DNA of 39,568 nt from a candidate division WWE3 bacterium (lineage in GTDB: Bacteria > Patescibacteriota > WWE3 > UBA101185 > UBA10185), in assembly GCA_052035175.1 (NCBI GenBank), contig JBPOHV010000001.1, forward strand, positions 1 to 39,568, in the 5' to 3' direction. Of the stretch, positions 18,641 to 35,747 are shown in pieces (the first letter of the stretch is position 1; every line of letters begins with the position of its first letter). The notes beneath the pieces were generated by a model. It saw nothing but the letters and a program-made list of their open reading frames with translations. It was not told the DNA's origin and did not search any database. A program made the position numbers and the translations under genes.

Positions 18641-18712
18641 ACATTAAGTATGACATCAAAAGTGTTTGGAAGGAATTCCTGGGTCACTAAACATCGCTAA
18701 TAATAACTCTAT

Positions 18713-18796
18713 ATGGTGGACCTTAACCAGCGATATTTCAACCGTCTATTGCAAGTAGTAATCCTTATAAACAAAAGTACTGTTAGTGTACAATAA
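18713..18796 (+). pseudogene. Orphan LSR C-terminal tail at the distal att junction (MVDLNQRYFNRLLQVVILINKSTVSVQ*)
   Basis: Same frame relative to the att core and same VDLN-x3-[WF]N-x-L pattern as the tail at 21522. Confidence 0.55.
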
Positions 18797-18809
18797 CAAA
18801 ATAAATACT

Positions 18810-19343
18810 ATGTACAATCCCTCACCGCAACAACAACAACAACTAGATCTCCTTTTTAAAATACTCGATTTAGCTAGTCAAAATAATATTCGATTATATG
18901 TTACTGGAGGATATGGGTTAGACGCCTTATATGGTGAATTGACAAGAAACCACAGAGATATTGATGTCTATTTACATACCAGTGATGAAGCGGGGTTTAT
19001 TAAAATATTAAATGCGCTTGGCTTTTCCGCGACTAGTCAGACCATAGGTGAAGTTAAAAAGAGAGAGTATAAAAATCCTGACTTTACAGACGAGTTCTCT
19101 ATCGAGTACGGAATTATAGAAGAAGGTATGAGGCTTATGAATACAACTTCCATAGCTGAGTATGTACCAACCACGCCTATTGGAGTATTAAATGGCAAAC
19201 CTATTTGGACATTTACTTTATTCGCGTTCAAAAAGATGCACACATTTAACAAGAGTCCTGCGGCAAGGCATACAGAACCCTATAGACACCAACACTGGCT
19301 TGATAATTTAATGCCTAAATTGGAGGTTAAATATGGAAAATGA
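18810..19343 (+). CDS. Nucleotidyltransferase, ANT(2'')-Ia/Lnu(A)-like family
   Basis: GGYGLDALYGELTRNHRDIDV matches the GG[WY]xxDxxxGxxTRxHxDxD signature. ATG 18810 chosen over GTG 18786. Confidence 0.8.
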   Translation: MYNPSPQQQQQLDLLFKILDLASQNNIRLYVTGGYGLDALYGELTRNHRDIDVYLHTSDEAGFIKILNALGFSATSQTIGEVKKREYKNPDFTDEFSIEYGIIEEGMRLMNTTSIAEYVPTTPIGVLNGKPIWTFTLFAFKKMHTFNKSPAARHTEPYRHQHWLDNLMPKLEVKYGK

Positions 19344-19893
19344 ATTACTTGAGCAACTAAAATTAATCTCTAAAGAACATATGGAAAAAGACAAATTTTT
19401 TCACGACTATGCGCATGCACTAGGGGTGTATTCCAATGTTGAAAAGCTACTGGAGCATGAAAACGGAAATAGACTTGCTTTACTTACCGCGGCACTTTTT
19501 CATGATATTTGTCGAGATCAAGAAGATCACGATAAGGTAGGTGCTAAACTGGCAAAAGAAATTTTAGAAGGAATTAAAGAGTTTCCAAAGGAACATTTAG
19601 ACTCAGTAATTGCACTAATCGAGAAGCACGAAGCAGGGCAGGTCACACAAGATCAAAAAATATTCTCGGATGCAGACAAAATGGAAGCATTTACACCACT
19701 TGGTTTTGCACGAGGTTTAATGATGTTTGCCGAATGGAAATATCCACTTAAAAAAGCCATTTTTACTTATGAGGAATTACTCAAAAAATGGTATAAAGGT
19801 TTTTATTTTGACGTGACTAACCACCTTGTAGAAACAAACTATTCGGAACTTAAAAAATACATCGATGAACTAAAAAGCAGATATAATTATTGA
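19333..19893 (+). CDS. HD-domain phosphohydrolase
   Basis: HDYAH, ALFHDI, IEKHE, DADKME; overlaps the upstream gene by 11 bp. Confidence 0.88.
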   Translation: MENELLEQLKLISKEHMEKDKFFHDYAHALGVYSNVEKLLEHENGNRLALLTAALFHDICRDQEDHDKVGAKLAKEILEGIKEFPKEHLDSVIALIEKHEAGQVTQDQKIFSDADKMEAFTPLGFARGLMMFAEWKYPLKKAIFTYEELLKKWYKGFYFDVTNHLVETNYSELKKYIDELKSRYNY

Positions 19894-19943
19894 TTTTTCC
19901 ATATTCCACTAAGTGTAAGAAATCCATAGAAGATTTAAGTATA

Positions 19944-20019
19944 TGGTGGACCTGAGGGGAATCGAACCCCTGCTCTCTACAATGCGAATGTAGCGCTTTA
20001 CCAACTAAGCTACAGGCCC
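19944..20019 (-). tRNA. tRNA-Ala(CGC)
   Basis: 76-nt cloverleaf, G3:U70 pair, arm CTACA-TTCGCAT-TGTAG, A73, CCA. Confidence 0.97.
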
Positions 20020-20143
20020 AAACTGCATACTTTACGCGCTCGCCTGGTGGCTAACGCACTTTACCAACTAAGCTACAGGCCCATGAAATGGGTAATGTAA
20101 GAGGAAGCGCAGCTGCGAAGCAGGAACAAGCTCTTACAGGCCC
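20020..20143 (-). repeat. Two partial copies of the tRNA-Ala 5' end with hairpin inserts
   Basis: 25-bp copy at 20059-20083 equals 19996-20020; 9-bp copy at 20135-20143; inverted repeat TGTAAGAG/CTCTTACA at 20096-20103 and 20131-20138. Confidence 0.85.
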
Positions 20144-20204
20144 TGACCAAACGATTTTATCATTTTTTTATAAAACCCCTTCTTTTTACTGCTATAATTT
20201 ATAT

Positions 20205-20369
20205 ATGATAAAAGATAACTCTTTAAAATTCGCAGGTTTAATCAGTATAGGGTATTTGGTAATCCAAGTACTTTCAAATGATATTGATGGGCTAGATATT
20301 ATTCCAGCGCTAGTACTAGGTGCTATTGTTTATGTGCTGATGAAAAAATTAGAGCATACGAGAAGGTAA
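20205..20369 (+). CDS. Small two-TM membrane protein (54 aa)
   Basis: TGc-TATAAT 6 nt before ATG 20205; two hydrophobic helices. Confidence 0.6.
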   Translation: MIKDNSLKFAGLISIGYLVIQVLSNDIDGLDIIPALVLGAIVYVLMKKLEHTRR

Positions 20370-20375
20370 TTAAAT

Positions 20376-20492
20376 ATGCCAGTAGCAGGAGAAACACAAA
20401 ACATGAACTGCCCTAAATGCAAGGCATTAACAACACATCAGTATAACGGTAGCCATTGGATTTGCTTAGGGCCAAACCATCGCGGATCATAG
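20376..20492 (+). CDS. 38-aa zinc-ribbon-like microprotein
   Basis: MPVAGETQNMNCPKCKALTTHQYNGSHWICLGPNHRGS; AGAAGG upstream; below the ORF-track cutoff. Confidence 0.45.
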   Translation: MPVAGETQNMNCPKCKALTTHQYNGSHWICLGPNHRGS

Positions 20493-20523
20493 TTTCATTG
20501 CACGAAACAAACAATTAACGTGT

Positions 20524-21198
20524 CTATTCTTGATGTAATAGCGGTACTAATTTTGTCACCGCATCTGGTACAGCAAATTTCCCCAATACAGTCTCCACGC
20601 CAGCTACAGGATATTTACATGCAAACAATGTATTACCTTTAATCTCTTGCGGTTGCTCAGCAGGCGACCCATCAGCAAAACAATAATGATATAAACCTTC
20701 TTCAACTAACCTTTCGAGGAGAGGTAAACTTCTTCTGTTGCATATTGATATGTGCACAATAGGCTGTTCTGCAAGACGAGCGGTCTCATTTATTGTACTG
20801 ATTAAAGTAAATAGCGCCTTAGTACCAGCTAAGGGATTTCGTATCGGTCGGAACTTTTCATCAAAAGTATTCCTTGTACTAATAGCAGAAATAGCAAAAC
20901 GTGGCTCACCTGCGACTAATAAAATAGTTGAATCAGAGTCGGGAGATGGAAATATTTCTTGAACAAAACTAACTTCTATAGAACCTGCATCAAAATCAGT
21001 GGAATTAGGCTCTGTTGATCCCCATTTTATTTGTACTTGATGAACAGGCTTACCGTTTGTTGCCATTGTAGGCATATCAAACTCGGTGACAATAGGATCT
21101 GAAATAGGCTCAATTCTTTGAGATAATCGTTGTAAAGATGGGTTAAACTGTATTGACTCAGGAATAAAATTATCTGGCAAGTTTTCCATATCAGACAT
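20524..21198 (-). CDS. Hypothetical protein (224 aa)
   Basis: Long clean ORF; TAGAAT 9 nt upstream of the ATG; no motif recognised. Confidence 0.6.
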   Translation of the reverse strand: MSDMENLPDNFIPESIQFNPSLQRLSQRIEPISDPIVTEFDMPTMATNGKPVHQVQIKWGSTEPNSTDFDAGSIEVSFVQEIFPSPDSDSTILLVAGEPRFAISAISTRNTFDEKFRPIRNPLAGTKALFTLISTINETARLAEQPIVHISICNRRSLPLLERLVEEGLYHYCFADGSPAEQPQEIKGNTLFACKYPVAGVETVLGKFAVPDAVTKLVPLLHQE

Positions 21199-21310
21199 AA
21201 TAAAAGTATTCTACAACTAATATTGATAACCACACCATAGAAAAGTGAAGCCACGTGTTTGTATATGTACTAAAGTGGACAAAATCACTATAATTCAAAC
21301 AGTGCTTAGC

Positions 21311-21517
21311 ATGAAAAGATTATTTATATCAATAACCTTTACAGTTCTAATGTTTATTTTATTGATTAAGAAACTGTTTCCTCCTATATGTATAAAAATT
21401 GCAGGAGTACCGTGTCCACAACCATTCTATTATCCTACACTTATTATCGGTACTATTATGATTTTTGCAGGAACATACTTGTGTCTTACCCTAATTTCTA
21501 AATTTACAAAAAAGTAA
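21311..21517 (+). CDS. Small membrane protein with a CxxxxxxxC loop (68 aa)
   Basis: Two hydrophobic helices flanking ICIKIAGVPCP. ATG 21311 chosen. Confidence 0.5.
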   Translation: MKRLFISITFTVLMFILLIKKLFPPICIKIAGVPCPQPFYYPTLIIGTIMIFAGTYLCLTLISKFTKK

Positions 21518-21521
21518 AATC

Positions 21522-21626
21522 TTGGTGGACCTAAACCCCAATACTTGGAACCATTTGTTTGACTGGGTTTTGAAATGGGGAAACCTAATACCAAACAAGG
21601 ATTTTGCCTTGGATTATGGTAAATAA
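21522..21626 (+). other. Alternative (excised-state) integrase tail LVDLNPNTWNHLFDWVLKWGNLIPNKDFALDYGK*
   Basis: In frame with LSR codon L505 once 21522 is joined to 26170; no start codon of its own. Confidence 0.7.
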
Positions 21627-21710
21627 TCTACCGCAGGCTATCACATACAGTGATTGGAACTATCCCGCATCACGTATCAAACACTATAGAAGTGGTGATA
21701 AAATTACATA

Positions 21711-22259
21711 ATGAAAGTCTTAGCTTTATTAATTTGGCCGTTATTTTTCATAACTACATTTTTTTTGTTCAATAAAGCTAAACTAAGCATTTTCAATAAA
21801 ACATATAGTAATTTAGGTTCTAATATAAAATACGGCAAAATGTTTAACTTTATTCTTGTTATAACGGGGTTAATTCAACTTCTATTTCTTACGTACGTAT
21901 TAGTAAATAATAAAAGTCAGTATTCCATAATCGGTGTTATGGGTTTAAGTAGCCTGATAGTTACAACAATTGCGGGGATTTTTACGGGAATTATCGCAGA
22001 ACACCATAACGAAAAAATTCACATGAAAATAGCGATAATAGGTTTTACAGGCGCAATAATTGGCTACCCTTTATACGGATTGTATCTGTTTAATGCAAAC
22101 TACAGTGTTGGCGTATTCATGCTTATCTGGGGTTTAATTGTAATGCCTTATCAAGCGTATCGTCATATGTCTGGTAAAAAAATCTATGCTATAAACGAAG
22201 TTTTTATGTTTCTGGGTGCTTTTTTCACCAATATTGCTTTGGTTTGGTTATATTTTTAA
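21711..22259 (+). CDS. Multi-TM membrane protein, DUF998-like
   Basis: TYSNLGS...MFNFILVITG, conserved His (KIHMKIA), 5-6 TM segments; TGa-TAAAAT 6 nt before the ATG. Confidence 0.6.
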   Translation: MKVLALLIWPLFFITTFFLFNKAKLSIFNKTYSNLGSNIKYGKMFNFILVITGLIQLLFLTYVLVNNKSQYSIIGVMGLSSLIVTTIAGIFTGIIAEHHNEKIHMKIAIIGFTGAIIGYPLYGLYLFNANYSVGVFMLIWGLIVMPYQAYRHMSGKKIYAINEVFMFLGAFFTNIALVWLYF

Positions 22260-22283
22260 TGTAGCCCTTTGGCTTACTGGAAA

Positions 22284-22838
22284 TTACAACTTTTTCATTT
22301 CAAATACTTTTCCCATAACTTCTTTCAACTTTTGTAAGTCTTTCGTATAACCTTTTGAAATTAGCCTATCTATAAGCATCGGTGCGCCTAGCACATGTTC
22401 TTTTTCAAGGACGATCAAAGCATTTTTTAACATTTTTTTGTCATTTGAAACCAAGAATAATTCGGGGTGATTTTGACACAGGGATATTAGGGCATAATCT
22501 GTGGCTGAAACTTTATTTCCTACTATATAAGCCAGTTTGTCATTTTCTTGTACTATCAATCTATTTTCTTTCCAATTAGGATCACCTGAATATTCTGAAT
22601 TAATAATATGACTTGTAAGAAACTTGTAATCTAAAGTCCTTGGACCATTTGCAAGTTCTAAAATAACTGAATTTGGAATTAAAAAAGTGGAATGTGCAGA
22701 ACCTTTTATGACATTAAGAATGTTTATACCGCAAAGTTTTTCCAATTCTTCAAAACGGCAGAAAGCACTGGTATCAATAAGGTAAACTTCTAATCCTTTT
22801 AAATTTGCAATTATCTTGTTATTGATATCGTAGGACAT
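22284..22838 (-). CDS. PIN-domain ribonuclease
   Basis: Acidic quartet D22 (LIDTS), E61 (SVILEL), D114 (SATD), D133 (VSND). Confidence 0.8.
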   Translation of the reverse strand: MSYDINNKIIANLKGLEVYLIDTSAFCRFEELEKLCGINILNVIKGSAHSTFLIPNSVILELANGPRTLDYKFLTSHIINSEYSGDPNWKENRLIVQENDKLAYIVGNKVSATDYALISLCQNHPELFLVSNDKKMLKNALIVLEKEHVLGAPMLIDRLISKGYTKDLQKLKEVMGKVFEMKKL

Positions 22839-22840
22839 TT

Positions 22841-23440
22841 TTAGAAAATTCGGATACGATCAGGGACAATGCTTAAACGGTATAAAAATTCCCATATGGT
22901 TAAACATAAAGTAACTACTTTGATTATTAACTTTACTAATTTGCCCACGAAGGAAAATTCCAATTGTTTTCTATTAAAACCAACACTTCCTAATAGCTGG
23001 AAGGGTATGCTTGCTATCAATTCTAAGATTTTACCAAGCCAGTAGAAAGGGTTCACTGTACGCAAGATTGCCATTGGAATGTCGCTTTCGTAATTACCGT
23101 ATGCCCTGTCAACCATGTCGATAAGTGCTTGGTATTCTATTTCATATCTGGATAAATTAAAGATATTTTCCATCATATCAATATGAACAACGGGACCACC
23201 TATAGCGGGCGGAGGGCAATAAGTTACGGAAGGATAAATATCGGCATCCATTAGCAACTGCTTAACTTTACCGGCATTCTTGTTTATTTGGTCCCGGATA
23301 GGCAAACTTTTGTCGTTATCAATAAGATCTGGGCTGAATTCCGCATATTCTACAGTAGAAAAGTATTTTGTTATAAGCTTTTTAAATAGTTCTAAAGACT
23401 TTCTGGAATTATTGTTATCAAAGATTGTCTTGTCTTTCAT
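22841..23440 (-). CDS. Hypothetical protein with C-terminal hydrophobic helices, co-operonic with the PIN gene
   Basis: 199-aa ORF with PPPAIGG and NPFYW motifs; stop is 2 bp before the PIN start. Confidence 0.7.
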   Translation of the reverse strand: MKDKTIFDNNNSRKSLELFKKLITKYFSTVEYAEFSPDLIDNDKSLPIRDQINKNAGKVKQLLMDADIYPSVTYCPPPAIGGPVVHIDMMENIFNLSRYEIEYQALIDMVDRAYGNYESDIPMAILRTVNPFYWLGKILELIASIPFQLLGSVGFNRKQLEFSFVGKLVKLIIKVVTLCLTIWEFLYRLSIVPDRIRIF

Positions 23441-23446
23441 ATGACT

Positions 23447-23489
23447 GGATTATAACACCGCTTATGCTTGTAACAATAAGCTATAATCC
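23447..23489. promoter_or_regulatory. Palindromic divergent promoter/operator inside the element
   Basis: GGATTATA (23447-23454) / TATAATCC (23482-23489) and GCTTAT/ATAAGC inverted repeats; each TATAAT is 8 nt before an ATG. Confidence 0.65.
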
Positions 23490-23495
23490 TATTAC

Positions 23496-24077
23496 ATGGA
23501 TACAATACAAGATAAAATTGGAAAAATCGGACCTGTGGAAATTGGTACACCCTATAAAACCGAAAAGGGCGGAACATATAAATATCCACTTCATCGGTTA
23601 ATAGAATTTCTTGACGTTAATGCAGACGACGAAGAATTTGTTGAACTGTTTTGCGAACGATTTAAATTTATTCCACGAAACCTTACAGAAGGTTGGGCAA
23701 AAGGATTTAAAGAAGAACAAGCACCAATAAAGGAAATCTACGAAAAACTTGAAAAGGGTAATTTGACAGAAGACGACATTAATCGCATAAACATAGAACT
23801 GGAACAAATCCACCCAAAGTTACATATACATAAAACTATGGGGCAAATAAATACAAATTCAGTTTACGAAACTTCAATTCATAAAAATTCTGTGGTTTCC
23901 ATTTGGGAAGATTTAAAAAACTATATCTTGGAAAAAAGTTATATCAAGCGTTGCCCCTACTGCGGAAATCCTTTTTTAAGGAATAAAATAAGACCACAGC
24001 AAAAATTCTGCTGTGACGAACACCGCTTAAAAGCACGCGAAGCAAGAAAACAGCAGAACAGAAGGCAGAAAAACTGA
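23496..24077 (+). CDS. Protein with a C-terminal zinc finger (CGNR/DUF6076-like), probable regulator
   Basis: IKRCPYCGNPF...KFCCDEHRLKAREARK; N-terminal EFL-x9-LFCERFKF. Confidence 0.65.
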   Translation: MDTIQDKIGKIGPVEIGTPYKTEKGGTYKYPLHRLIEFLDVNADDEEFVELFCERFKFIPRNLTEGWAKGFKEEQAPIKEIYEKLEKGNLTEDDINRINIELEQIHPKLHIHKTMGQINTNSVYETSIHKNSVVSIWEDLKNYILEKSYIKRCPYCGNPFLRNKIRPQQKFCCDEHRLKAREARKQQNRRQKN

Positions 24078-24129
24078 CCCCCCGGAAGACCCCCTGAAAG
24101 CAAGCCAATCAATCCGATAAAGTATCCCT

Positions 24130-24375
24130 GTGATACAAGATATATACAAAACAAAGGACCTTTTTGAAGCAAGCTATCTTCATTCAGCCGGATTACCCCT
24201 TAATGGATTAACCAATGGTGGTAATTACTATTGGTTTGAATTTTCCAATCAAAAACAATGCCAAGAACTATCTACAAAATATTGGGCTAAAAAAGCCAAC
24301 GGCAACATTAAAACATTTGTGGACAGTCTTAAGACGCTTAAAGACTTGGTTTTTTCAAGAAAAGGAGCGCTATGA
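24130..24375 (+). CDS. DUF5659-like small protein
   Basis: YKTKDLFEASYL...G..L...FEF...Y...K.LKDLVF pattern; GTG start. Confidence 0.6.
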   Translation: MIQDIYKTKDLFEASYLHSAGLPLNGLTNGGNYYWFEFSNQKQCQELSTKYWAKKANGNIKTFVDSLKTLKDLVFSRKGAL

Positions 24376-24500
24376 TTACTGTAAACGACGCAAGAAAGAT
24401 ATTGGGCACTTTTGGAAGTAATAAAACTGACGTTGAAATCGAAATGATAGTAAAATTTATTTATAAGTTAGGCGAAAGGGTGGTGCTGGATTTTGGGTAA
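24372..24500 (+). CDS. 42-aa protein upstream of the LSR (candidate directionality factor)
   Basis: MITVNDARKILGTFGSNKTDVEIEMIVKFIYKLGERVVLDFG; ATGA overlap with the upstream stop; AAAGGAG RBS; not in the ORF track. Confidence 0.65.
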   Translation: MITVNDARKILGTFGSNKTDVEIEMIVKFIYKLGERVVLDFG

Positions 24501-24657
24501 AATGTCCGAAATGCCCGACTTCAGGCATATCAAATTGCCGAAATTCCCGATTGAAGGGCATTGAAATTAAGCAAATTCAGCAGTTAAAGTGCTTAAAATG
24601 TCACAAATGTAGCACTTTTGGGGGTATAAATCCCACAAATCCCGCATAAAAGACTAT

Positions 24658-26241
24658 ATGGATACAAAAAACAAAAAAGCATTAATATATTGCAGGGTTT
24701 CATCAGAAAGACAGGTCAATGAAGGCCACGGACTGGATAGCCAAGAAAGTAGGTGCCGACAATACGCCGAAAACAAGGGATATGCTGTTACAGAAATCTT
24801 TCGTGACGAAGGTATTTCTGGCGGTTTGTTTGAACGCCCCGCCATGAAACAGTTAATTTCTTTCATGGATAAGACCCCTTTTGAAAAATATATAGTCATT
24901 TTTGATGACCTAACAAGATTTGCGCGTGACGTTAAAGTTCACTTGGAATTGAAACTGGCGCTTAAATCACGTGGCGCTACATTTGAATGCTTAAACTTCA
25001 ACTTCGAAGATAGCCCTGAAGGTGAATTAAGCGAAAACATTTCTATGGCTTCCGCCCAATATGAAAGGCAGAAAAACAGACGCCAAGTGATGCAGAAGCA
25101 GAAAGCCCGACTTGAAGCTGGTTATTGGTGTTTCTGTAATGCAGACGCCTTTAAATTCACCAAAGACCCCGTGCACGGGAAACTACTGGTCAGAAACGAA
25201 CCGTTCGCTTCAATTTACAAAGACGCCATTGAACAGTTTGAACAAAGAAAGTTAATAAGCAAAGAACAAGTCAAAGAATTTATCTATGCTGAATATCAAC
25301 GACTTAATTTGAAAAGAAAAAAACCCGGCAATAATACAGTTGAAAGAATACTTAAAAACCCCTTGTTCGCTGGATATGTCGAATATTTGCCTTGGGGTGT
25401 GACCAGACGACTGGGACATCACAAAGGTTTTATATCCCCTGAAACGTTTGATAATGTACAAGAAATCCTTGCTGGAAGGACTTTAAAACGTACACGCAAA
25501 GACTACAGCCTTGATTTTCCATTAAGGGGATATGTTTTATGCGCGGAATGCCAAGAACCAATTACCGCAAGTTGGTCAAAGGGAAGAACCGCCTACTACG
25601 CTTACTATTCTTGTAAAACGGTTGGTTGTAAAAACAGATATAAAACTATCAGAAAAATTAATATCGACGTGGAATTTGAAAAATTACTTGAAGAAACAAA
25701 AACGGCAGAAGAAATACTGAACCTTACAAAACGTATTATGCAAGAAGTTTGGAATAACCAAAAAGTTCAGTTTGAAAGCATAAGTTCCCAAAGCGAAGGT
25801 AAGAAACTGGCGTTACAGAAACAAATTGATGGCTTTATGGGAAGAATAGCCAATGCAACCAACGAACAGGTCATAAAGGCTTATGAAAACCAAGTGGAAA
25901 AACTGATGCAAGAAAAGACAGAACTTGAAACAGGCTTCAAACCTAATCCGTACACCGAAAGTCAGTTTGGAACCGCATTGAATAAAGTGTTTAATGTAAT
26001 ACAGAACCCCTTGTTACAGTGGAAAACCGACAATATTACGGATAAGGAAACGGTGTTAAATATGTATTTTAATGGCAAACTTAATTACGACTTAAATTAT
26101 GGGTTTGGAACCTCCACTTTGGCCCCTGAAATCAACTTAATCAAAGACTTCGGGGCACAAAAAGTTTCATTGGTGGAGATGAGGGGAATTGAACCCCTGT
26201 GTTGCAAGGCTGTTATGCAAAAGTATACAAGCTTATTCTGA
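24658..26241 (+). CDS. Large serine recombinase (integrase)
   Basis: Catalytic IYCRVSS, RPAMKQL, DDLTRFARD; recombinase domain; zinc ribbon LRGYVLCAEC...YYSCKTVGC; coiled coil. The last 23 codons are antisense to tmRNA. Confidence 0.95.
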   Translation: MDTKNKKALIYCRVSSERQVNEGHGLDSQESRCRQYAENKGYAVTEIFRDEGISGGLFERPAMKQLISFMDKTPFEKYIVIFDDLTRFARDVKVHLELKLALKSRGATFECLNFNFEDSPEGELSENISMASAQYERQKNRRQVMQKQKARLEAGYWCFCNADAFKFTKDPVHGKLLVRNEPFASIYKDAIEQFEQRKLISKEQVKEFIYAEYQRLNLKRKKPGNNTVERILKNPLFAGYVEYLPWGVTRRLGHHKGFISPETFDNVQEILAGRTLKRTRKDYSLDFPLRGYVLCAECQEPITASWSKGRTAYYAYYSCKTVGCKNRYKTIRKINIDVEFEKLLEETKTAEEILNLTKRIMQEVWNNQKVQFESISSQSEGKKLALQKQIDGFMGRIANATNEQVIKAYENQVEKLMQEKTELETGFKPNPYTESQFGTALNKVFNVIQNPLLQWKTDNITDKETVLNMYFNGKLNYDLNYGFGTSTLAPEINLIKDFGAQKVSLVEMRGIEPLCCKAVMQKYTSLF

Positions 26242-26567
26242 ATTTTCTTTTGAAGAAAAAGTTTCAGACCAACTTTTGATTTCTTCAGCAAGTAAAGTAG
26301 TTGTGCTTATTGCACTAGATAAATGTTGTTTACTAGACAACATAACCTCAAATCAGTTTTATAAGACAAATCTTTTCTCACCTGATTGAGAGAAAAGCTG
26401 CCCCCCACAAAGTGGGAATCGAAGATCTTATGCAAAAGCATAAGCCATTGCTGGTTCTTCAACTTGTGCGTATTCATTTGCACTTGTATTTGTTGAAAGA
26501 TTAACGAGGAATCAACACCTCAGCTTGCTCCTGCACAAAGAACTTACAGTCAAAGCCTGTCATCCCC
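26171..26567 (-). ncRNA. ssrA: tmRNA (one-piece, 397 nt)
   Basis: 5' GGGGATG pairs with CATCTCC-ACCA (G3:U70), T-arm AGGGG-TTCAATT-CCCCT, internal tag ORF, adjacent to smpB. Confidence 0.95.
26428..26481 (-). other. tmRNA tag reading frame (A)ANEYAQVEEPAMAYAFA*
   Basis: Resume codon GCA after TACAAGT; hydrophobic Ala-rich C-terminus; TAA stop. Confidence 0.8.
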
Positions 26568-26593
26568 GTGCCAACGTATTTTACCATCAAGAG

Positions 26594-27064
26594 CTAATAA
26601 GTGCGTAATTTGTCTTGGAGAGCGAGATCGCTTTTGATTTGGCGATCTTTGAGTACTTGTTTCTTTTCAAAATCTTTTTTGCCTTTTACAATGCCTACTT
26701 CGACTTTTAATAATGGCCCTTTTGTTACAAAAGATAAAGGTACGGCTGTGCGTCCTTTTTGAGAAAGCTCTGCAGATAGATGCGCGATTTCTTTTTTTGT
26801 CATCAAAAGTTTTTTGCTTTCACGAGCACGTATAGCGTCGATTTCTTGGCTCTGCTTAGAATAAGCACCTATATACATATTTACAATAAAAGCCTCGTTT
26901 CCTATAACTTTTACAAATGTACCTTCTAGATTGGCCTGGCCTTCGCGGATTGCTTTTACTTCATAACCACGCAAAACAATGCCAGCTTGGATAGTTTCTA
27001 GCACTTCGTGATTGTATAAAGCTTTGCGATTTTTTATTAAAATTCCATGTCTCAACACGTCCAT
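26594..27064 (-). CDS. smpB: SsrA-binding protein
   Basis: NRKALYNHEVLETIQAGIVLRGYEVKAIR, KKLLMTKKEI, GKKDFEKK; TGt-TAAAAT 6 nt before the ATG. Confidence 0.96.
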   Translation of the reverse strand: MDVLRHGILIKNRKALYNHEVLETIQAGIVLRGYEVKAIREGQANLEGTFVKVIGNEAFIVNMYIGAYSKQSQEIDAIRARESKKLLMTKKEIAHLSAELSQKGRTAVPLSFVTKGPLLKVEVGIVKGKKDFEKKQVLKDRQIKSDLALQDKLRTY

Positions 27065-27197
27065 GGCTACATTTTAACACTATAGATGAAAAAACAAGGA
27101 GATTACTCACAAAAAACATTTACTAAAAAAGTTGTTTATTGCTAAAAACAAAGGTTTAACTAATAAGAGTAGGGTTTACGATCTAAACTAAAGGGCT

Positions 27198-28553
27198 TTA
27201 TTTCTTATCTTTTTTCTTATCGCCGCCACCGCCTACACCGAATGCTGCTTGCATTTTGGCTGGTATGCTTCTGGCAAGGCCAAGACCATATATAAGAACT
27301 AAAGGTCCAAGCAATAAAGAATAAGACAATGTTGTAAAAATAGCTGCTATATCTAGGCTAAATATCGAAATACCTATATGCCAAGCCACATTCAAAGTCA
27401 ATGAAACGACAAGTCCCATTGCAGGTATAGACAAAACATTGGCACCAAAACCTTTAAACCATTTGACCGTACCATCATTTCCAGGTAGTGCACCTAAAGC
27501 AAATGTTATAGGTGCCATTACAATTGAAACAAGTATATTGAAGTAAATCTTCACAAACTCAAACCAAACCATCAAGTATAAAAAGGCTGCAACTACACCA
27601 CCAGCTAAAACAGCGATAAATACGCCTAGACCAAGACCTGCACCCCATGGAGCTGCCAAAACAACACCAACAAGCATAAAAATAACACCTGCACCGGCAG
27701 ATGAGCTAGAAACAGCATTTAATGGTTGTGCACCAAGATTTGGAACAATATAATCGGCTACGAAAGTGTCCATGCTCCAACGCATGTTATAAGCCAAAGA
27801 AGCTCCTATCGCACCAATAGTATATGAGAAAAATATCAAGACTATAGCCACAGCAATACGTGGTAGAGCCAGTTGCACACTAACAGCTGCTTGCGCGCTG
27901 ATTTTTTTACCAGTGATTATCATGATACCCACAACCAACATTATCATAGCAATCAAAACCAAAGCGATATCTTTGGATATCTGAGCTACGCCGTAAGTAA
28001 GATCAAGAAATGGGCCAGAGTAATCTTCTGGTGCAGCAAAAGCTGTTTTTACAAAAGGAATCTTTTCTATATTACGATTCCAGGCATATGCGGCATCAAC
28101 CGGAAGGCCACCACTAATAGTATAATCTGCAACGTTTAACAAACCCAAAAGGCCACCACCACCGCTTAGATGAGCTTGTGGGTCTGAATTATTAAATACA
28201 TTTTCATCAGAAAAACCTTCCATTATGATCCTACATTCTGCCTCTGTAATAGAACACGAAGAAGGTACTTCTATGGAAGGATCTTCTGAACTTGCTTTGA
28301 GAAGTGCGCATTTTTGTACATCGCTAATATTTCTTTCAACAAAAACATGTGTAGTAGTTTCTACTATAGTAGCTATACCTGTCGTGATAAGCGTTTTACC
28401 AAGGTCACTACCTGGTACAGAGTTGGTTATCGAATTGTATATATCTTCTCTTCCGGTACAACTACCAGTAAATGCATATGCACTGGGCAACACATGGGCT
28501 AAAGTGAAAAGAAAAATAAATGCGTAAATTACAGATTTTTGTAGTTTGTTCAT
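27198..28553 (-). CDS. VirB6/TrbL-like polytopic membrane protein
   Basis: Signal-like N-terminus, soluble region, then many TM helices including GIMIITGKKI...LALPRIAVAIVLIFFSY; next to the pilin array. Confidence 0.55.
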   Translation of the reverse strand: MNKLQKSVIYAFIFLFTLAHVLPSAYAFTGSCTGREDIYNSITNSVPGSDLGKTLITTGIATIVETTTHVFVERNISDVQKCALLKASSEDPSIEVPSSCSITEAECRIIMEGFSDENVFNNSDPQAHLSGGGGLLGLLNVADYTISGGLPVDAAYAWNRNIEKIPFVKTAFAAPEDYSGPFLDLTYGVAQISKDIALVLIAMIMLVVGIMIITGKKISAQAAVSVQLALPRIAVAIVLIFFSYTIGAIGASLAYNMRWSMDTFVADYIVPNLGAQPLNAVSSSSAGAGVIFMLVGVVLAAPWGAGLGLGVFIAVLAGGVVAAFLYLMVWFEFVKIYFNILVSIVMAPITFALGALPGNDGTVKWFKGFGANVLSIPAMGLVVSLTLNVAWHIGISIFSLDIAAIFTTLSYSLLLGPLVLIYGLGLARSIPAKMQAAFGVGGGGDKKKDKK

Positions 28554-28620
28554 TACCTATACATTTTTTCACACAAAAAGGAATTTTTCAATACAATTTT
28601 CTGTTAGAATATATTGCAAT

Positions 28621-31600
28621 ATGGCATTGCATCCAAATCCAAATTATCAAAGCAAGCATTACACAGGTAAACCTATCTCTTTAGAGCTTTGGGAAAACAT
28701 ATTTGGTAATTGGGGAAAAGAGCTTACGGCTGGGATGCGCCCAAAAATCACAGCTAAAGGTAAATCAGAAGATTATGCTGTCATAGAAGCATATGAATAC
28801 AAAAATGGTAAAGCTAGCTTAGAAGAAGTTTTTGAAGAGCCTGGTGTTAAGTTGGTTGTTGAATTAGATACTGCAATCACCAACCCAGCGCAATTTATCA
28901 AAAAAACAGCTGAACAAAGTATTAAACAAGTGTTTTACCCCAAAGACCTTGATTCTGGGATGCAGCAAGATATTTGGAAAAAAATATTAAGCGGAGAATC
29001 TACAGGTATAGCCGGCGAAGAATACTTTAAACGGATTGTCCAGGGCAAAGACCAAGTCAACCTTTCACTCAAAGATATACCAGTTACAAAAAAAGTCATA
29101 AGTACATTTTATGTAGGTAAAGCCAACGGTAAATTTGAAAAAGTAGAAGAAGAAAGCCAAGAAGGTATATACGGGCATCTGGCCAATACATATACAAGTG
29201 CCATCACAGGAATGGCAAGTAAAGAAAATAGAAATGCTGCAATGCGCAAATGGCAAGCAGAAACTTTGGGGGATTTGTCTGAAGAACTTCAACAAAAGAT
29301 ACGCGCAGGTAAATTGCGTGCAGATTCTCCAGAAGTAAAATTGATCCTCGCTCAAAATAAAATAGCAAACTCAATGGGAAGCATAAGCTCTGATATAAGC
29401 AAGGTAGCTTCTGGCGCGAGCAGTTTGCGCATGATCACATCACCACTTGCTTCTGACAAAGTTAAAGCCAAAGCAAAATGGCAAATGACTGACACCACGA
29501 GAAGTACCTTACAACAAGTTACTGACGGGAAATTAACACTCGCCGACGCTATAAAACAAGGACTGCTTGATGCAGAATCGAATGTAGTACAAGCATATGC
29601 TGCACAACAAAAACTAACCGCAACTATCGCAGCATCTCAAAAAGAACTCAAAGATTTGGCCGCACAATTCAAAGGTACGCAATATGCAACTCAATTTGAA
29701 AAAGCTACAAGAGAACATGCCAGATATTTGGAAAATTTGAGTAAAAAAGTAAACGGCGTAAAAGTAGAAGATTTTGGCACTGGGCAATATGTGATATATG
29801 GTGGAAGCTTAAAAGCTTATTTGCATGATCTTGAAAATGCTAACTTTGAAGGCGGTATAAGAGACAGATTTTTAAATAGAACACACGATGTACTGAGCTG
29901 CAACAATGTAAAGATACGACAAATACTAGACAGTACTGAAGGTGCTCCAACTATAAATAGATTATCTCGCGTTTTGAGAACACGCTACAGAAGTGGGGCG
30001 CTCGACGATTTGAATGATGATATAGCTGAAGGCGCAGGTGGTGTATTTAATACATTTGTTCTTTCGAAATATCAACACAGACTAGCTATATTTGGTCCTC
30101 CAAAAATCCTAAAAGACTTTTTAGTTAAAACACATTATTTTGGCCTTAACTACGAAGAAGATGGCGATGAAAAATATGCGCGTTTAGTACCTTTACATAA
30201 ATTTAATTTAGACGTATTAGGAGATATAGTAAAAGTTACCGGTGGCTCTCATTTTGCAGGATCTATAGAACTTTATAAATTGTTAGCTACCGGACAACTC
30301 AATGGATTGCGTATAAAAACTGAAGGTAAAGACTTTAACCCAATTGCCAATTTTTCATCAATTGCACACGGAAAAGATTTACTTAGCTTATTAAACGGAA
30401 AAGCCATTGACGGTTTGAAATTGACCGATGTAAAAGGATTTCAAGGTAAAGTTGGCGGTTTTAGAAAATGGGTACTAGATAATGCATCTAAATTGGGTAT
30501 AACACTCAAAAACGGCGAGATAGAAAGCACGCTAGAAAATTCTAATAGACTAATCTCAATCATAAATCAAACGACGCGCAGAGAATTTGACCACACATTG
30601 CTTAACGCAACACAAATGAGAGTTGGCTTATTAGAAAGATACACATCATTTTTGGGACAAGGGCAAGCAAAAATGTATCAACTGCTCAATGCCGTTGGAA
30701 TTGGAAAATATGTAAAAAGCTATACATATTATAAAGAAGCAATTGCTGTAGCAATTTCAAGCTTTTTGAAAGCTGCTGCGGGAACAGTATCAGGCGGTAC
30801 AGCGGCTGTATTCTTGAATTGGGTCTTTGACTATATCGGACATACTGTAGTCAAAATGGGAGAAGGCTTTATAAAAGCGCTAAATCCACTCGTCGAAGGC
30901 GATTTCGGAACTGTCTTCAAAAACATTGAACGTACAATAGATGGTGCGGTAGATATCGTAATAAAAGTCTTTATGATTCCACTCGGAATTATATTTGTTT
31001 TCTCATTTTTATATGTCAGTTCGATCTTTTCTTTGGTAAATCCAGCTGATCCAGCGCGTGCTACTACATTTAAAGAACTCGACCTTGGCGGGAGCTATCC
31101 TATACCTCCTAACATTGAAGCGTGTATTGGTGATGCTGATGATGGAGGGCTTGCAGAACTTTCTGGAGGAGGAGGCGTTGCCGACGAAGCAAAATCAATA
31201 GCATCTGGGCTGTTACGCGGGTTTTGGTGCTTTTGGAATCACCACCCAAGCTATGATCCAGAATTTTGGAATCAAGCAGTATTTGATGCAAACCCAAGCC
31301 CAGGGTCTGACTTTAGCTGCGGAAATTGTTTATTTTGGTGTACAGCTTTACCTATCAAAGCTTATGATGGAGCCATACCAGGAGATTTATTGAATTCTCA
31401 GTCTATGGCTGAATTTTTTGGATATCAAAATGATGACGTTACAAGTACATCTGCGGACGGCACGCGGGTATTTATTGCAAATAATGCAGCAGGTATGGAG
31501 GTATACCAGCCTCAGCCGGGCGATGTCATCTTCTTTAGAACACCTTTGCGCCAATATTACCGTATAGCTCACGTAGCAATGGTGTATTCGTATCAAGCAG

Positions 31601-31740
31601 GCGTTGCTATGGAATCTGTACATTCAAATTCTTACTACAAACGCTTCACATACACTGTAAATGGAGATGGTGTTGTCCAAGACTACGCAATAGGCGGAGA
31701 CACTGTACAAGAAGTAATTGGTTTTGGAAGATTTTTGTAA
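28621..31740 (+). CDS. 1039-aa protein: long N-terminal region, TM segments, C-terminal CHAP/NlpC-P60-like domain
   Basis: FWCTALP (Cys), QPGDVIFF, AHVAMV (His), HSN. Start moved to ATG 28621 to avoid overlap with the divergent gene. Confidence 0.65.
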   Translation: MALHPNPNYQSKHYTGKPISLELWENIFGNWGKELTAGMRPKITAKGKSEDYAVIEAYEYKNGKASLEEVFEEPGVKLVVELDTAITNPAQFIKKTAEQSIKQVFYPKDLDSGMQQDIWKKILSGESTGIAGEEYFKRIVQGKDQVNLSLKDIPVTKKVISTFYVGKANGKFEKVEEESQEGIYGHLANTYTSAITGMASKENRNAAMRKWQAETLGDLSEELQQKIRAGKLRADSPEVKLILAQNKIANSMGSISSDISKVASGASSLRMITSPLASDKVKAKAKWQMTDTTRSTLQQVTDGKLTLADAIKQGLLDAESNVVQAYAAQQKLTATIAASQKELKDLAAQFKGTQYATQFEKATREHARYLENLSKKVNGVKVEDFGTGQYVIYGGSLKAYLHDLENANFEGGIRDRFLNRTHDVLSCNNVKIRQILDSTEGAPTINRLSRVLRTRYRSGALDDLNDDIAEGAGGVFNTFVLSKYQHRLAIFGPPKILKDFLVKTHYFGLNYEEDGDEKYARLVPLHKFNLDVLGDIVKVTGGSHFAGSIELYKLLATGQLNGLRIKTEGKDFNPIANFSSIAHGKDLLSLLNGKAIDGLKLTDVKGFQGKVGGFRKWVLDNASKLGITLKNGEIESTLENSNRLISIINQTTRREFDHTLLNATQMRVGLLERYTSFLGQGQAKMYQLLNAVGIGKYVKSYTYYKEAIAVAISSFLKAAAGTVSGGTAAVFLNWVFDYIGHTVVKMGEGFIKALNPLVEGDFGTVFKNIERTIDGAVDIVIKVFMIPLGIIFVFSFLYVSSIFSLVNPADPARATTFKELDLGGSYPIPPNIEACIGDADDGGLAELSGGGGVADEAKSIASGLLRGFWCFWNHHPSYDPEFWNQAVFDANPSPGSDFSCGNCLFWCTALPIKAYDGAIPGDLLNSQSMAEFFGYQNDDVTSTSADGTRVFIANNAAGMEVYQPQPGDVIFFRTPLRQYYRIAHVAMVYSYQAGVAMESVHSNSYYKRFTYTVNGDGVVQDYAIGGDTVQEVIGFGRFL

Positions 31741-31769
31741 AAAGTTTTAAATAAAAGAATCTAAAAAAA

Positions 31770-32240
31770 ATGGAAAGCCTAATAGAATTTGTAAATAAAA
31801 AATGGAAATACTTGTTAGTTATTTGTGGTGCATCCCTTTTGATATATGTGGTCGTAAACTTCTTTACAACAAAAGCTCCTTTGCAATCAAAGCCGTCAAG
31901 CGATCAAGTGTACAGTGTTGAAACACAAAACCAAATACAAAAAAAGCAGCTACAGCAAATAAACTATAGCAGTCCGACAATAATGGAACGTATTGAAGAT
32001 CAAAATATTGGTGACACATTTTTTAGCGAGTCTGGTAAACAAATGGCAGATGCTTATCCTTGGTTTAGAGACATACCTATCTATGCAGATACTTACACGG
32101 TAGTTTTTGATTATGAACAACAAAAATTTAGAATAGTTGTAAAGCCAGGGGCTGATAAACCAACTGCCACAAGCAACGCACTTCAAGCGTTGAGAGATAT
32201 AGGAGTTCAGATAACCGCCACAAATTATTATGTTCAATAA
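31770..32240 (+). CDS. N-terminally anchored hypothetical protein
   Basis: Single TM at residues ~12-32, then a soluble domain. Confidence 0.65.
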   Translation: MESLIEFVNKKWKYLLVICGASLLIYVVVNFFTTKAPLQSKPSSDQVYSVETQNQIQKKQLQQINYSSPTIMERIEDQNIGDTFFSESGKQMADAYPWFRDIPIYADTYTVVFDYEQQKFRIVVKPGADKPTATSNALQALRDIGVQITATNYYVQ

Positions 32241-32306
32241 AGATAGAAGATAGAGTAGTCCCAAATCTCAAGAACTATTACGTTTATGTAAAAGAAGCAC
32301 GTCTAA

Positions 32307-32729
32307 TTATTTAGACGTGTAAGCCGTAACCAACTCTTCCAGCTTGGTCGCAGCTGCATCAAAGACTTCAGAAAATGTAGAAAAATAGCTTAAACCCAAA
32401 GAAGTCACAATAATTGAATAAATAGCTGCAAAACCCACAATTACTAAAAACCCATAAATAACATACGTCCAATTGGCACTTGCTGCTTTGAGACCTTCAG
32501 GGTTACCCATAGCTAAAGACATCTTTATAACTCCTACCAGAATCATTATTGTTAAAAGAACACCAGCCAAAAGTATGGCTGCATTAAATACTCTTTTGAA
32601 TGGGCACACCAAATATTCTGCGGGTATATCCTCATCGAGCGGAATAGTATTGCAATCAACAGCTGCAAATGCAACGCGCATATTCAAAAGCATTATAAAA
32701 AACATTAATGTATATAATATTTTTTTCAT
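32307..32729 (-). CDS. VirB2/TrbC-like pilin 5
   Basis: Signal peptide ending AFA, then TM - AMGNPEGLKAA - TM. Start MKKILY at 32729. Confidence 0.7.
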   Translation of the reverse strand: MKKILYTLMFFIMLLNMRVAFAAVDCNTIPLDEDIPAEYLVCPFKRVFNAAILLAGVLLTIMILVGVIKMSLAMGNPEGLKAASANWTYVIYGFLVIVGFAAIYSIIVTSLGLSYFSTFSEVFDAAATKLEELVTAYTSK

Positions 32730-32733
32730 AGAT

Positions 32734-33057
32734 TTAAAATCCAGGTGTACTGCTATTAATCTCGGCTGTTTGTACACCGATTGATTGTAAAATAGCGCCT
32801 TTTACAGACAACACACCTATAGAAACACACGCAGCAATTATACCCAAAATAAAGGCATTCCACGCTACTTCTGTTTTCTTTGGGTCACCTTCGCTGTGAG
32901 AATATAAAATTGCTGAATAAGCGATACTCATAATACCTATACCAAAACCAAGACCCATAAATAAATTTATCAACAAACCAGAAATGCCTGAGATTGTACT
33001 CAATGGTTCTGGATTTGGTACTCCGCTGCCTGTTAATGTATCAATAAGTTTATCCAT
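32734..33057 (-). CDS. VirB2/TrbC-like pilin 4
   Basis: TM - SEGDPKKTEVA - TM. Confidence 0.7.
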   Translation of the reverse strand: MDKLIDTLTGSGVPNPEPLSTISGISGLLINLFMGLGFGIGIMSIAYSAILYSHSEGDPKKTEVAWNAFILGIIAACVSIGVLSVKGAILQSIGVQTAEINSSTPGF

Positions 33058-33063
33058 ATAATT

Positions 33064-33609
33064 TTAATTTGGCTCACATGTACAACAATGTCCTGTCGTG
33101 CCACCCATGCAATTCTGTTCACAATAAGTATCAAAGTCACAAACTAAATGAAAACCTTGCACGCATTGAGGTTCAAAGCCTGGACAAGCACAAACCGAAT
33201 TCTCACAAGTAATTTGGCCTCCGCCGCCTCCGCCACCACCACCGCCGCCCCCGCTTGTAGATTGATCTTCACCTTCAAAGTTGGTTATACCGTTAATAAT
33301 AAACGTACCGCTATTAGTACCGAGTCCTTGAGGAATGTAGGCTTTAAAAGTCATTACAAAAAAGAGCATAACACCACCAACAACAGCGTAGGCGATTTTA
33401 TTTATACCCTTTTTAACATTGTCTGGAGTGCCTTGCGACACAATAAGTGCATCTATACCAAGAGCAATTTGATAAAAAACCAATGCCCACCCGATATAAA
33501 TAATCGCGCTTATAATAAATCCAAGTATATTCGCAATAGATAAAAACCTGCCGCCTAAAGGATCTACTATCGCATCTCCTAAGGCAGCAAGTCGAAATAG
33601 TCCATACAT
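33064..33609 (-). CDS. VirB2/TrbC-like pilin 3 with a Gly12 linker and a 10-Cys C-terminal domain
   Basis: TM - SQGTPDNVKKG - TM, then 12 Gly and 10 Cys in the last ~50 aa. Confidence 0.72.
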   Translation of the reverse strand: MYGLFRLAALGDAIVDPLGGRFLSIANILGFIISAIIYIGWALVFYQIALGIDALIVSQGTPDNVKKGINKIAYAVVGGVMLFFVMTFKAYIPQGLGTNSGTFIINGITNFEGEDQSTSGGGGGGGGGGGGQITCENSVCACPGFEPQCVQGFHLVCDFDTYCEQNCMGGTTGHCCTCEPN

Positions 33610-33624
33610 ATAATAATTACGCTA

Positions 33625-33670
33625 ACAAAGAGAAACAAACAGCCGTACCGAGCAGAATACTAGGTACGGT
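33625..33670 (-). terminator. Putative terminator/attenuator after pilin 2
   Basis: CCGTACC/GGTACGG stem (33643-33649, 33663-33669) followed on the minus strand by CUGUUUGUUUCUCUUUG. Confidence 0.5.
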
Positions 33671-33675
33671 TGTTG

Positions 33676-34023
33676 TTAATTTGTACCTGTACCACCAAAG
33701 TCTGTAACTCCGGTTAACTCCAAACTTCCACCGACGAGTTGAGGAATGATTACCTTCAAAACTCCGACGAAGAATAAGCCAACACCACCGACTATTGCGT
33801 AAGTTACCCATTGTTGAGCAGCATTAACTGCTTTTTCATCGCCTTTGGACATAACGTATTGAGCAAAACCAAATGCCAACATTACGAAAACCAAAGCCCA
33901 ACCTACGTAAATGATTGTATTGATAATAAAACCAAATATTGCAGAAAGGCTACCAAAACGATCTGTGAATGTTGGAACTGCTACTGGTATTGCATCTGCT
34001 AATTTAAATAAAGAATTCAACAT
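33676..34023 (-). CDS. VirB2/TrbC-like pilin 2 (candidate major pilin)
   Basis: TM - SKGDEKAVNAA - TM; upstream AAGGGGGTG SD-like sequence. ATG 34023 aligns with the start of its paralog at 33609. Confidence 0.75.
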   Translation of the reverse strand: MLNSLFKLADAIPVAVPTFTDRFGSLSAIFGFIINTIIYVGWALVFVMLAFGFAQYVMSKGDEKAVNAAQQWVTYAIVGGVGLFFVGVLKVIIPQLVGGSLELTGVTDFGGTGTN

Positions 34024-34056
34024 ATTGTTTATGTACACCCCCTTTTAACATTAAAT

Positions 34057-35744: not shown

Positions 35745-35747
35745 ATA

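Follow-up and report, generated by a model that had tools for sequence, protein, structure and literature searches.

A serine integrase gene that spans its attachment site at the tmRNA gene of a candidate division WWE3 bacterium and the conservation of its circle-encoded tail

The closest described counterpart of the system reported here is dsiB, the ssrA-specific serine integrase gene of Dehalococcoides, which in all cases runs across the attachment (att) site and terminates beyond the island (McMurdie et al. 2011, PMC3146451); the same authors suggested that dsiB is fully functional perhaps only on the circular element. A gene of this kind, encoding a large serine recombinase (LSR), is located in a 39,568-nt stretch of the genome of a candidate division WWE3 bacterium (GenBank assembly GCA_052035175.1, contig JBPOHV010000001.1, positions 1 to 39,568; hereafter the window), on a 4.6-kb element integrated at the 3' end of ssrA, the transfer-messenger RNA (tmRNA) gene. 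The reading frames indicate that integration replaces the C-terminal tail of the enzyme, and comparison with relatives shows that the tail encoded by the free circle is maintained as protein. The initial annotation of the window had called this arrangement an undescribed system, which was overstated, since DsiB of Dehalococcoides is already a direct precedent (PMC3146451). No description of the present family, which belongs mainly to the candidate phyla radiation (CPR), or of a conserved circle-specific LSR tail was found in the literature, where DsiB is the sole close precedent.

As in the DsiB islands, an LSR is carried by a small non-conjugative island at the ssrA 3' end, the integrase gene crosses att and terminates either beyond the island or within ssrA, and tandem and integrase-less islands gather next to ssrA. 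This likeness is one of published description and gene layout. Whereas the DsiB islands have a 20-bp repeat with the crossover in the T-loop, the window element has an 8-bp core (5–8 bp in its family) at the acceptor/CCA end, and its attL and attR arms share only these 8 bp and diverge right after ...GTGGA, that is, in the acceptor stem. The DsiB islands carry a six-gene module (among others the second, small serine recombinase DsiA, RecF-, ParB- and Mom-like proteins, and an embedded tRNA-like locus), while the window family has a single LSR with a 42-aa partner; searches of the element's proteins against Pfam and PHROGs detected none of the DsiB-module domains, and no tRNA was found inside the element. 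Unlike in the DsiB islands, tRNA genes are also targets. Finally, the overlapping part of DsiB was reported to be divergent, with no conserved circle tail demonstrated, whereas the episomal tail of the window family is conserved as protein.

When compared to the phage LSRs (A118/LI, phiC31, Bxb1 and SPbeta SprA), the window enzyme exhibits the same layout of resolvase, recombinase and zinc-ribbon/coiled-coil domains and the same 5-bp shift of the attP motif, but in the phages directionality comes from a separate recombination directionality factor and not from a rewritten enzyme. To our knowledge, the LSRs of these phages mostly target protein-coding genes, and their attP sites have not been reported inside the integrase open reading frame (ORF). 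According to the Islander paper (PMC4383910), tRNA genes are not among the known targets of serine integrases. The suicidal tyrosine integrases of the SSV1 type, from archaeal viruses and plasmids (PMC8371274), share an attP within the integrase ORF, a tRNA target and a gene altered by integration; there, however, a tyrosine recombinase is split into two non-functional parts, whereas the window LSR is a serine enzyme with all domains in one ORF. According to the account of Broussard et al. 2013 given by PMC5764923, integration-dependent immunity of the cluster N/P mycobacteriophages likewise places attP in a gene that overlaps a tRNA gene, and integration truncates the C-terminus of the encoded protein and so alters its behaviour. 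In that system, a repressor is rewritten by a tyrosine integrase and an ssrA-like degradation tag is removed, in contrast to the window family, in which the integrase is rewritten and no such tag is present (the episomal tails end ...DYGK, ...LTNS, ...KRFI, etc.).

The integrated isoform of the window LSR is composed of residues 1–504 from the element, 505–506 from the core and 507–527 from antisense tmRNA (Table 1). Its architecture is that of a serine integrase, with an N-terminal resolvase domain, a recombinase domain, a Cys4 zinc ribbon and an inserted coiled coil. Pfam assigned Resolvase to residues 8–155 (PF00239, E = 3.8e-25), Recombinase to 217–274 and Zn_ribbon_recom to 288–337, the latter two (PF07508 and PF13408) above their cut-offs. 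The catalytic motif YCRVSSxRQ contains R13, S15 and S16, invariant or nearly so in alignments, and C295, C298, C319 and C324 are invariant; long helices at 351–399 and 403–425 were predicted in the body by AlphaFold2 (AF2). The sequence matches the catalytic domain structure of TP901-1 integrase (3bvp) and, over residues 143–323, that of A118 integrase (4kis), and in PHROGs the highest-ranking match was to phrog_95, an integrase family (E = 1.5e-67).

Seventy-one nucleotides of the tmRNA 3' end are covered by the LSR ORF in antisense, and L505-V506 correspond to TTG GTG at 26170–26175, the antisense of ...ACCAA. The tmRNA scored 111 bits in Rfam against a 47-bit cut-off, and its sequence remains untouched because the exchange falls within ...GTGGA. 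Continued from 21522, the LSR frame yields LVDLNPNTWNHLFDWVLKWGNLIPNKDFALDYGK and a stop at 21624–26, giving a reconstructed protein of 538 aa, while one core copy plus the interval (21522–26169) gives a reconstructed circle of 4,648 bp. On this circle the expected attP junction is ...AAAAAGTTTCA TTGGTGGA CCTAAACCCC..., and the restored attB would be ...AAAAGTAAAATC TTGGTGGA GATGAGGGG.... Integration thus swaps residues 507–538 (the last ~30–34 codons) and retains every recognised domain. The initial annotation had reported the 527-aa ORF running through the core into tmRNA, the 538-aa joined form, the circle size and the 71-nt overlap, all of which were confirmed by reading, and it was also right in placing the integrated element at the 3' end of tmRNA, in having the LSR gene span attP and in concluding that integration replaces the C-terminal tail. 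On the evidence of these frames, attP is shown to be embedded in the integrase gene, and the chromosome-encoded enzyme is without the circle-specific helix discussed below.

A search of a protein collection returned more than 2,900 LSR homologues at E <= 1e-10. Among the 120 best, 116 end in ..VEM.G.EP.S-type peptides such as ...LVEMPGIEPGS..., which is the antisense of the acceptor stem and T-arm of a tRNA or tmRNA in the LSR frame; the other four (P0005, P0026, P0042 and P0117) end in LVDI..(S/N)WN.(L/I)..(Y/W)(I/V).(K/R)W..., the motif of the reconstructed tail of the window. In 160 fetched loci, 80 from species-representative genomes and 80 from metagenomes, the LSR ORF enters tmRNA or tRNA-Ala, Lys, Tyr, Met, Arg, Leu, Ser, Thr, Glu or Ile, and antisense overlap with a tRNA or tmRNA gene is a family trait. 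Since V506 is invariant in the alignments, no examined member stops before the core. The integrated tails end from about 8 to more than 100 residues after it, and they are arbitrary in sequence and length, as set by the tRNA antisense. The hosts are mainly Patescibacteria (CPR). Relatives from Alpha- and Gammaproteobacteria, 37–41% identical, likewise read into tRNA genes, mostly tRNA-Ala; they come from Rhodobacterales, Hyphomicrobiales and others (L039, L043–L045, L050–L057, L060–L064, L066–L070, L077–L079, L082–L083).

Natural counterparts of the reconstructed form were also identified. Seven attP-form LSRs are present (L001, L002, L059, L086, L087 (P0005/26/42/117 plus a genome contig) and L127), and in all seven contigs the LSR ORF runs unbroken into the W-rich tail. 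Exact terminal overlap is the usual mark of circular assembly; it amounts to 127 nt each in the contigs of 4,330 bp (P0005) and 10,950 bp (P0117, L087) and to 26 nt in the 7,539-bp contig (P0042, L086), so that three attP-form contigs are consistent with circles. No tRNA was found on L001 or L002. The episomal protein deduced in the initial annotation therefore has natural equivalents, on contigs with circle-like terminal overlaps. In integrated loci, the match to the tail motif or to a tail hidden Markov model (HMM) is situated 1.2–9 kb upstream of the LSR on the same strand, and HMM matches otherwise fall at the LSR's own 3' end, with one extra match inside the episomal-form contig L127; neither motif nor HMM gave a match on the opposite strand or downstream of the LSR. 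In total, 65 distinct tails were collected.

These data also bear on the ends of the element. The window contains six copies of the 8-mer TTGGTGGA where 1.3 would be expected, a count reached in 1 of 100 shuffles, and the 8-bp repeat was for this reason dropped as stand-alone boundary evidence. The ends are instead fixed by context. The closest homologue, P0002, has an 83% identical LSR in another organism, again beside tmRNA and smpB (L003–L005). Its element L003 is 98.5% identical to the window over 21518–21583 and 82% identical over 23457–26235, whereas the DNA left of the first block is unrelated, so that the homology sets in where the attL core was proposed. Across a first set of 31 attL/attP tails, the information content of the outer flank was ~0. 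A second support is provided by the confinement of the tail motif to the expected place, on the same strand upstream of such LSRs. The identity between attP and attB extends over 8 bp in the window, GTGGA family-wide and 19–20 nt in L005 and L031, and sequence does not pinpoint the crossover dinucleotide.

Two layers of constraint can be distinguished in the episomal tail, the first of them at the DNA level. At tail codon 2, Asp is written GAC in 54/54 cases and never GAT, and at codon 9, Asn is written AAC in 53/62 cases, compared with a C ending for 37% and 35% of the corresponding codons in the LSR bodies (p = 5e-24 and 3e-16); these p-values are uncorrected for relatedness and inflated by the shared descent of the tails, and are to be read as descriptive. 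Because the synonymous sites of GAC and AAC are frozen, GTGGAC and TGGAAC(C) are DNA motifs. Counted from the G of GTGGA, GAACC lies at nt 24–28 of the P' arm and at nt 19–23 of the tRNA/tmRNA (B') arm, in which it corresponds to the T-loop/T-stem read in antisense. A motif for the zinc-ribbon domain located 5 bp further out in attP than in attB has been established for an A118-type integrase and proposed for LSRs generally (PMC3783163), and the corresponding outward shift in the tail identifies its first ~28 nt as the P' half-site. The offset is seen in the P'/B' arms only; the P and B arms are unconserved across the family, and no conserved DNA motif was found in the P arm (the end of the LSR body) beyond a Lys codon.

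Constraint of this kind could be expected if the exchange of tails were a by-product of compaction, with attP merely overlapping the end of the gene, the tail kept as the P' DNA arm and both isoforms equivalent. The synonymous constraint on GTGGAC/TGGAAC and the reproduced LSR attP geometry fit such a reading, as do the arbitrary integrated tails of elements that appear mobile nonetheless, and McMurdie et al. gave a comparable "trivial" reading for dsiB (PMC3146451). Conservation, however, continues to about nt 66, well past the 25–28-bp half-site, and there it follows the codons. At codons 11, 15 and 22 of the 65 tails, the second-position T is invariant or near-invariant (Leu/Ile/Val) while 14, 9 and 15 different codons are used, and mean information content over codons 11–22 is 0.56, 1.05 and 0.31 at codon positions 1, 2 and 3. 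For three of four close pairs, codons 10–22 give proportions of synonymous differences (pS) of 0.55–0.74 against non-synonymous ones (pN) of 0.03–0.13, i.e., a pN/pS of 0.06–0.22; over codons 23–30 the pooled pN/pS is 0.93. The LSR frame stays open after the core for a median of 34–36 codons (minimum 23), about three times longer than the other two frames (5–11), although ~12 of its open codons are guaranteed by the design of the search. Together with the absence of a stop before the core in any examined member, these features make the compaction reading unlikely.

The hydrophobic tail positions repeat as in an amphipathic helix. Modelling of the 538-aa protein by AF2, with the reconstructed window protein and 59 natural homologues as input, gave a well-predicted body, a disordered linker at 502–511 and a helix at 512–524 with a predicted local distance difference test (pLDDT) score of ~60. 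Codons 11–22 of the episomal tail are kept by purifying selection as protein, in a pattern that fits an amphipathic helix. The initial annotation had asked whether attP-encoded tails are selected as protein, and periodicity and pN/pS answer positively for codons 11–22; its counter-proposal, that the DNA-binding motif in attP explains tail conservation entirely, holds for GTGGAC/TGGAAC and does not hold for these codons, where conservation is at the protein level.

The explanation we favour, with a probability of roughly 0.6 for the whole of it, is a two-state integrase with a functional circle-specific helix, in a large and so far unnamed family of serine-integrase elements. Its members integrate at the very 3' end (acceptor stem/CCA) of tmRNA and tRNA genes. 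On the free circle, the enzyme would end in a flexible linker, encoded by the P' DNA half-site, followed by a Trp/Tyr-rich amphipathic helix. Recombination of attP with attB would move the helix-coding DNA 4.6 kb away, to attL, and the integrated enzyme ends in an arbitrary peptide read from antisense tmRNA. We infer that the helix serves as a functional module while the enzyme is in its integration phase, and that its loss on integration alters the enzyme's behaviour. The most likely effect of this loss would be on directionality or activity, in conjunction with the 42-aa partner, with stability as the alternative. The initial annotation had likewise proposed that the exchanged tail may switch the stability, activity or directionality of the integrase. 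A role in directionality is most attractive because of the precedent of the SprA C-terminus, the conserved 42-aa gene and the little regulatory room of such tiny elements: in PMC11722253, F532 at the extreme C-terminus of SPbeta SprA is described as affecting directionality and as adjoining the directionality factor in cryo-EM structures. In addition, convergent transcription into the highly expressed tmRNA gene may lower expression of the integrase when the element is integrated.

The partner gene is situated directly upstream of the LSR or overlaps its start. Homologues were detected at the same position in 98/163 loci tested, and in 52/60 of the tested loci with a detected tail. The family has two predicted helices and the consensus TIxxARKILGxxxxxLTDxEIExxxxxLYxL; no Pfam or PHROGs match was obtained for the 42-aa protein, and no such gene was detected near the proteobacterial relatives. 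On position and conservation, the protein is a candidate directionality factor or regulator, and it would be co-expressed with the LSR in both the integrated and the circular state.

Several points weigh against the two-state explanation. If the element excises with its own enzyme, the helix-less isoform must be catalytically competent and the helix dispensable for chemistry. The codon statistics are weakened by shared descent, as stated above; W8 and N9 of the tail are inseparable from the DNA motif, with an invariance partly built in by the searches, and the pair formed by the window and L003 has a pN/pS of ~0.5 over codons 10–22. In the AF2 model of the 538-aa protein, no confident contact or docking of the tail with the body was observed, which would also suit equivalent isoforms. 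Neither the repeat search nor the tail HMM revealed a convincing attL site within 10 kb of the proteobacterial relatives, and no helix motif was detected there. As for the window element itself, a search of the JGI metagenomes for its circle or empty site, with an IUPAC pattern covering attP, attB, attL and attR, gave 0 matches, and a search for the empty site via the neighbouring smpB gave a sole other contig, 100% identical to the window and with the element in place. Regarding available material, Logan contig L088 (run SRR34217543) is 100% identical to window positions 20054–37064, and public reads of the same organism exist.

A bolder form of the two-state explanation, which we regard as doubtful, assigns the helix a cis role on the zinc-ribbon/coiled-coil region, where it would act, for instance, by blocking or imitating the 42-aa partner, so that the circle enzyme would only integrate and the chromosomal enzyme would only excise. 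If true, it would represent self-rewriting directionality without an external regulator, in thousands of elements directed at the tRNA/tmRNA 3' end, which is universally conserved.

A functional switch could also take the special form of a one-way lock, in which, as in a milder kind of suicidal integrase, the integrated isoform is inactive and excision needs intact enzyme from a co-resident circle or from the attL arm of a tandem neighbour. This hypothesis has already been proposed for DsiB (PMC3146451). Tandem tail arms and LSR-less cassettes are indeed frequent (window 18710–19953, L003/L005, L007, L027, L099 and L117), and several episomal-form contigs bear circular-assembly signatures, as expected if circles persist. 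Nevertheless, the 527-aa form retains all catalytic and DNA-binding domains, the window LSR adjoins tmRNA with no further tail arm after it, and no sign that the integrated form is inactive was found, which makes a lock rather improbable. That the post-core stretch is a separate feature (a small ORF, a site for an accessory protein, or a promoter or terminator that serves the first cargo gene) is suggested by the position of the integrated arm, apart from the LSR gene and upstream of cargo, but is highly improbable given that the periodicity follows the LSR frame, that in each of the seven natural attP-form contigs the LSR ORF passes into the stretch without a break, and that at attL there is no start codon or conserved upstream sequence, with flank information of ~0.

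Should the two-state integrase be confirmed, a large serine-integrase clade targeting tRNA and tmRNA genes, stated not to be known for serine recombinases, would be established. The data provide the first sequence support for the two-isoform conjecture made in 2011 about att-spanning serine integrase genes, with the circle-only C-terminus as a selected protein module superimposed on an arm for DNA recognition. How the far C-terminus of an LSR sets direction is an active question in the field, and the tail would help to answer it if it governs directionality or stability. A possible application lies in compact integrases that have a state switch built in and natural landing sites that are highly conserved. 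Small cargo also seems to be commonly carried by this family in Patescibacteria, a group with poorly known mobile elements.

Table 1. Features of the integrated element and its target in the window
Feature	Position	Strand	Remarks
LSR, integrated isoform, 527 aa	24658–26241	+	ORF reading; ends ...KVSLVEMRGIEPLCCKAVMQKYTSLF, then stop
tmRNA gene (ssrA), intact, integration target	26171–26567	-	ARAGORN and Rfam; CCA encoded
attL common core TTGGTGGA, left element boundary	21522–21529	+	antisense of the tmRNA terminus ...TCCACCA and one additional base
attR common core TTGGTGGA, right element boundary	26170–26177	+	
P' half-site of attP, GTGGAC-N15-TGGAAC	21525–21551	+	also tail codons V506–N514 of the episomal LSR
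Coding sequence of the conserved, predicted amphipathic tail helix, T512–G524	21543–21581	+	TWNHLFDWVLKWG; translated only on the circle
Unconserved episomal tail end and stop	21582–21626	+	direct reading; NLIPNKDFALDYGK, stop TAA at 21624–21626
42-aa partner gene, conserved	24372–24500	+	directly upstream of the LSR
Cargo membrane protein, 182 aa	21711–22259	+	weak DUF998, E = 6e-4, below Pfam cut-off
Two neighbouring cargo genes, 184 aa (22284–22838) and 199 aa (22841–23440)	22284–23440	-	
193-aa protein, weak HNH-like C-terminus	23496–24077	+	first gene of the block common to L003
DUF5659 protein, 81 aa	24130–24375	+	Pfam PF18903, E = 1.4e-7
smpB	26594–27064		Pfam; just beyond tmRNA

Annotation of the cargo was mostly empty in Pfam, PHROGs and PADLOC; the 184-aa and 199-aa proteins, for instance, had no match in any of the three. 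At the position corresponding to the 182-aa gene, L003 also has a DUF998 gene, and the DUF5659 gene recurs close upstream of these LSRs, including in L002 and L087. Related elements measure 3.5–11 kb, and the cargo seen in them includes restriction-modification, TIR-domain and protease-domain genes. Defence-type cargo is exemplified by L087 (10,950 bp), with two DNA methylases, Vsr and an HNH nuclease, and by L086 (7,539 bp), with a TIR-domain protein, a trypsin-like protease and a LexA-type DNA-binding protein, while L002 carries an S24 (LexA/CI-like) peptidase.

With respect to the target sites, tmRNA and tRNA-Ala are those used most often by the family. In the window, the 3' 29 nt of tRNA-Ala(CGC) (19944–19972) are 90% identical to the tmRNA 3' end (26171–26199), and it is plausible that both are served by a single integrase specificity. 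The 5' 28 nt of the same tRNA (19993–20020 / 20056–20083) are duplicated 63 bp upstream with 96% identity. Some metagenome contigs (L093, L108, L122, L138 and L160) consist of the element plus ~60–120 nt past each att site (515 nt at the right end of L122), and these assembly breaks at both junctions seem to fit an element in varying population contexts. In L124 (5,092 bp) and L126, the LSR passes through ~19 nt that resemble tmRNA and continues into unrelated DNA; in L124, where a terminal repeat is present, 85 nt of the contig start, just before the tail arm, recur near the end, and this contig may be a circle from an unusual site pair.

Two tandem tail arms lying upstream of a single LSR, or around it, were observed in L007 (6420, 7423), L027 (4946, 5781), L099 (5378, 6156), L117 (1845, 2507) and L127 (9087, 12025). 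The paired copies differ mainly at synonymous sites, and such arrangements suggest elements accreting at one site. Upstream of the window element, an LSR-less cassette of 1.2 kb (18710–19953) is delimited by an exact 14-bp direct repeat, TATATGGTGGACCT, at 18710–18723 and 19940–19953 (0 expected by chance), the second copy being the 3' end of tRNA-Ala(CGC). The first copy is followed by a decayed P'-like arm (GTGGACCTTAACC...TTCAAC). The initial annotation had described a homologous tail at 18713. The segment 18716–18742, which encodes MVDLNQRYFNRLLQVV..., does match the GTGGAC-N15-TGGAAC frame with 2 mismatches, so the half-site likeness stands, but the arm fails the tail HMM and belongs to this separate cassette. 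The cassette contains genes for 185 aa and 186 aa, the latter matching a PHROG of unknown function, and no recombinase; judged by its ends and content, it looks like an integrase-less remnant or a cis-mobilisable cassette of the same element type, as in Dehalococcoides. A comparable site occurs at the sister locus (L005:99, about L003:2216), upstream of a 271-aa gene that precedes the sister attL (L003:3270); there, a 19-nt copy of the tmRNA 3' end, TTGGTGGAGATGGGGAGAA, is followed by ..TTGGAAC one base out of register, and the site is another tandem integrase-less remnant.

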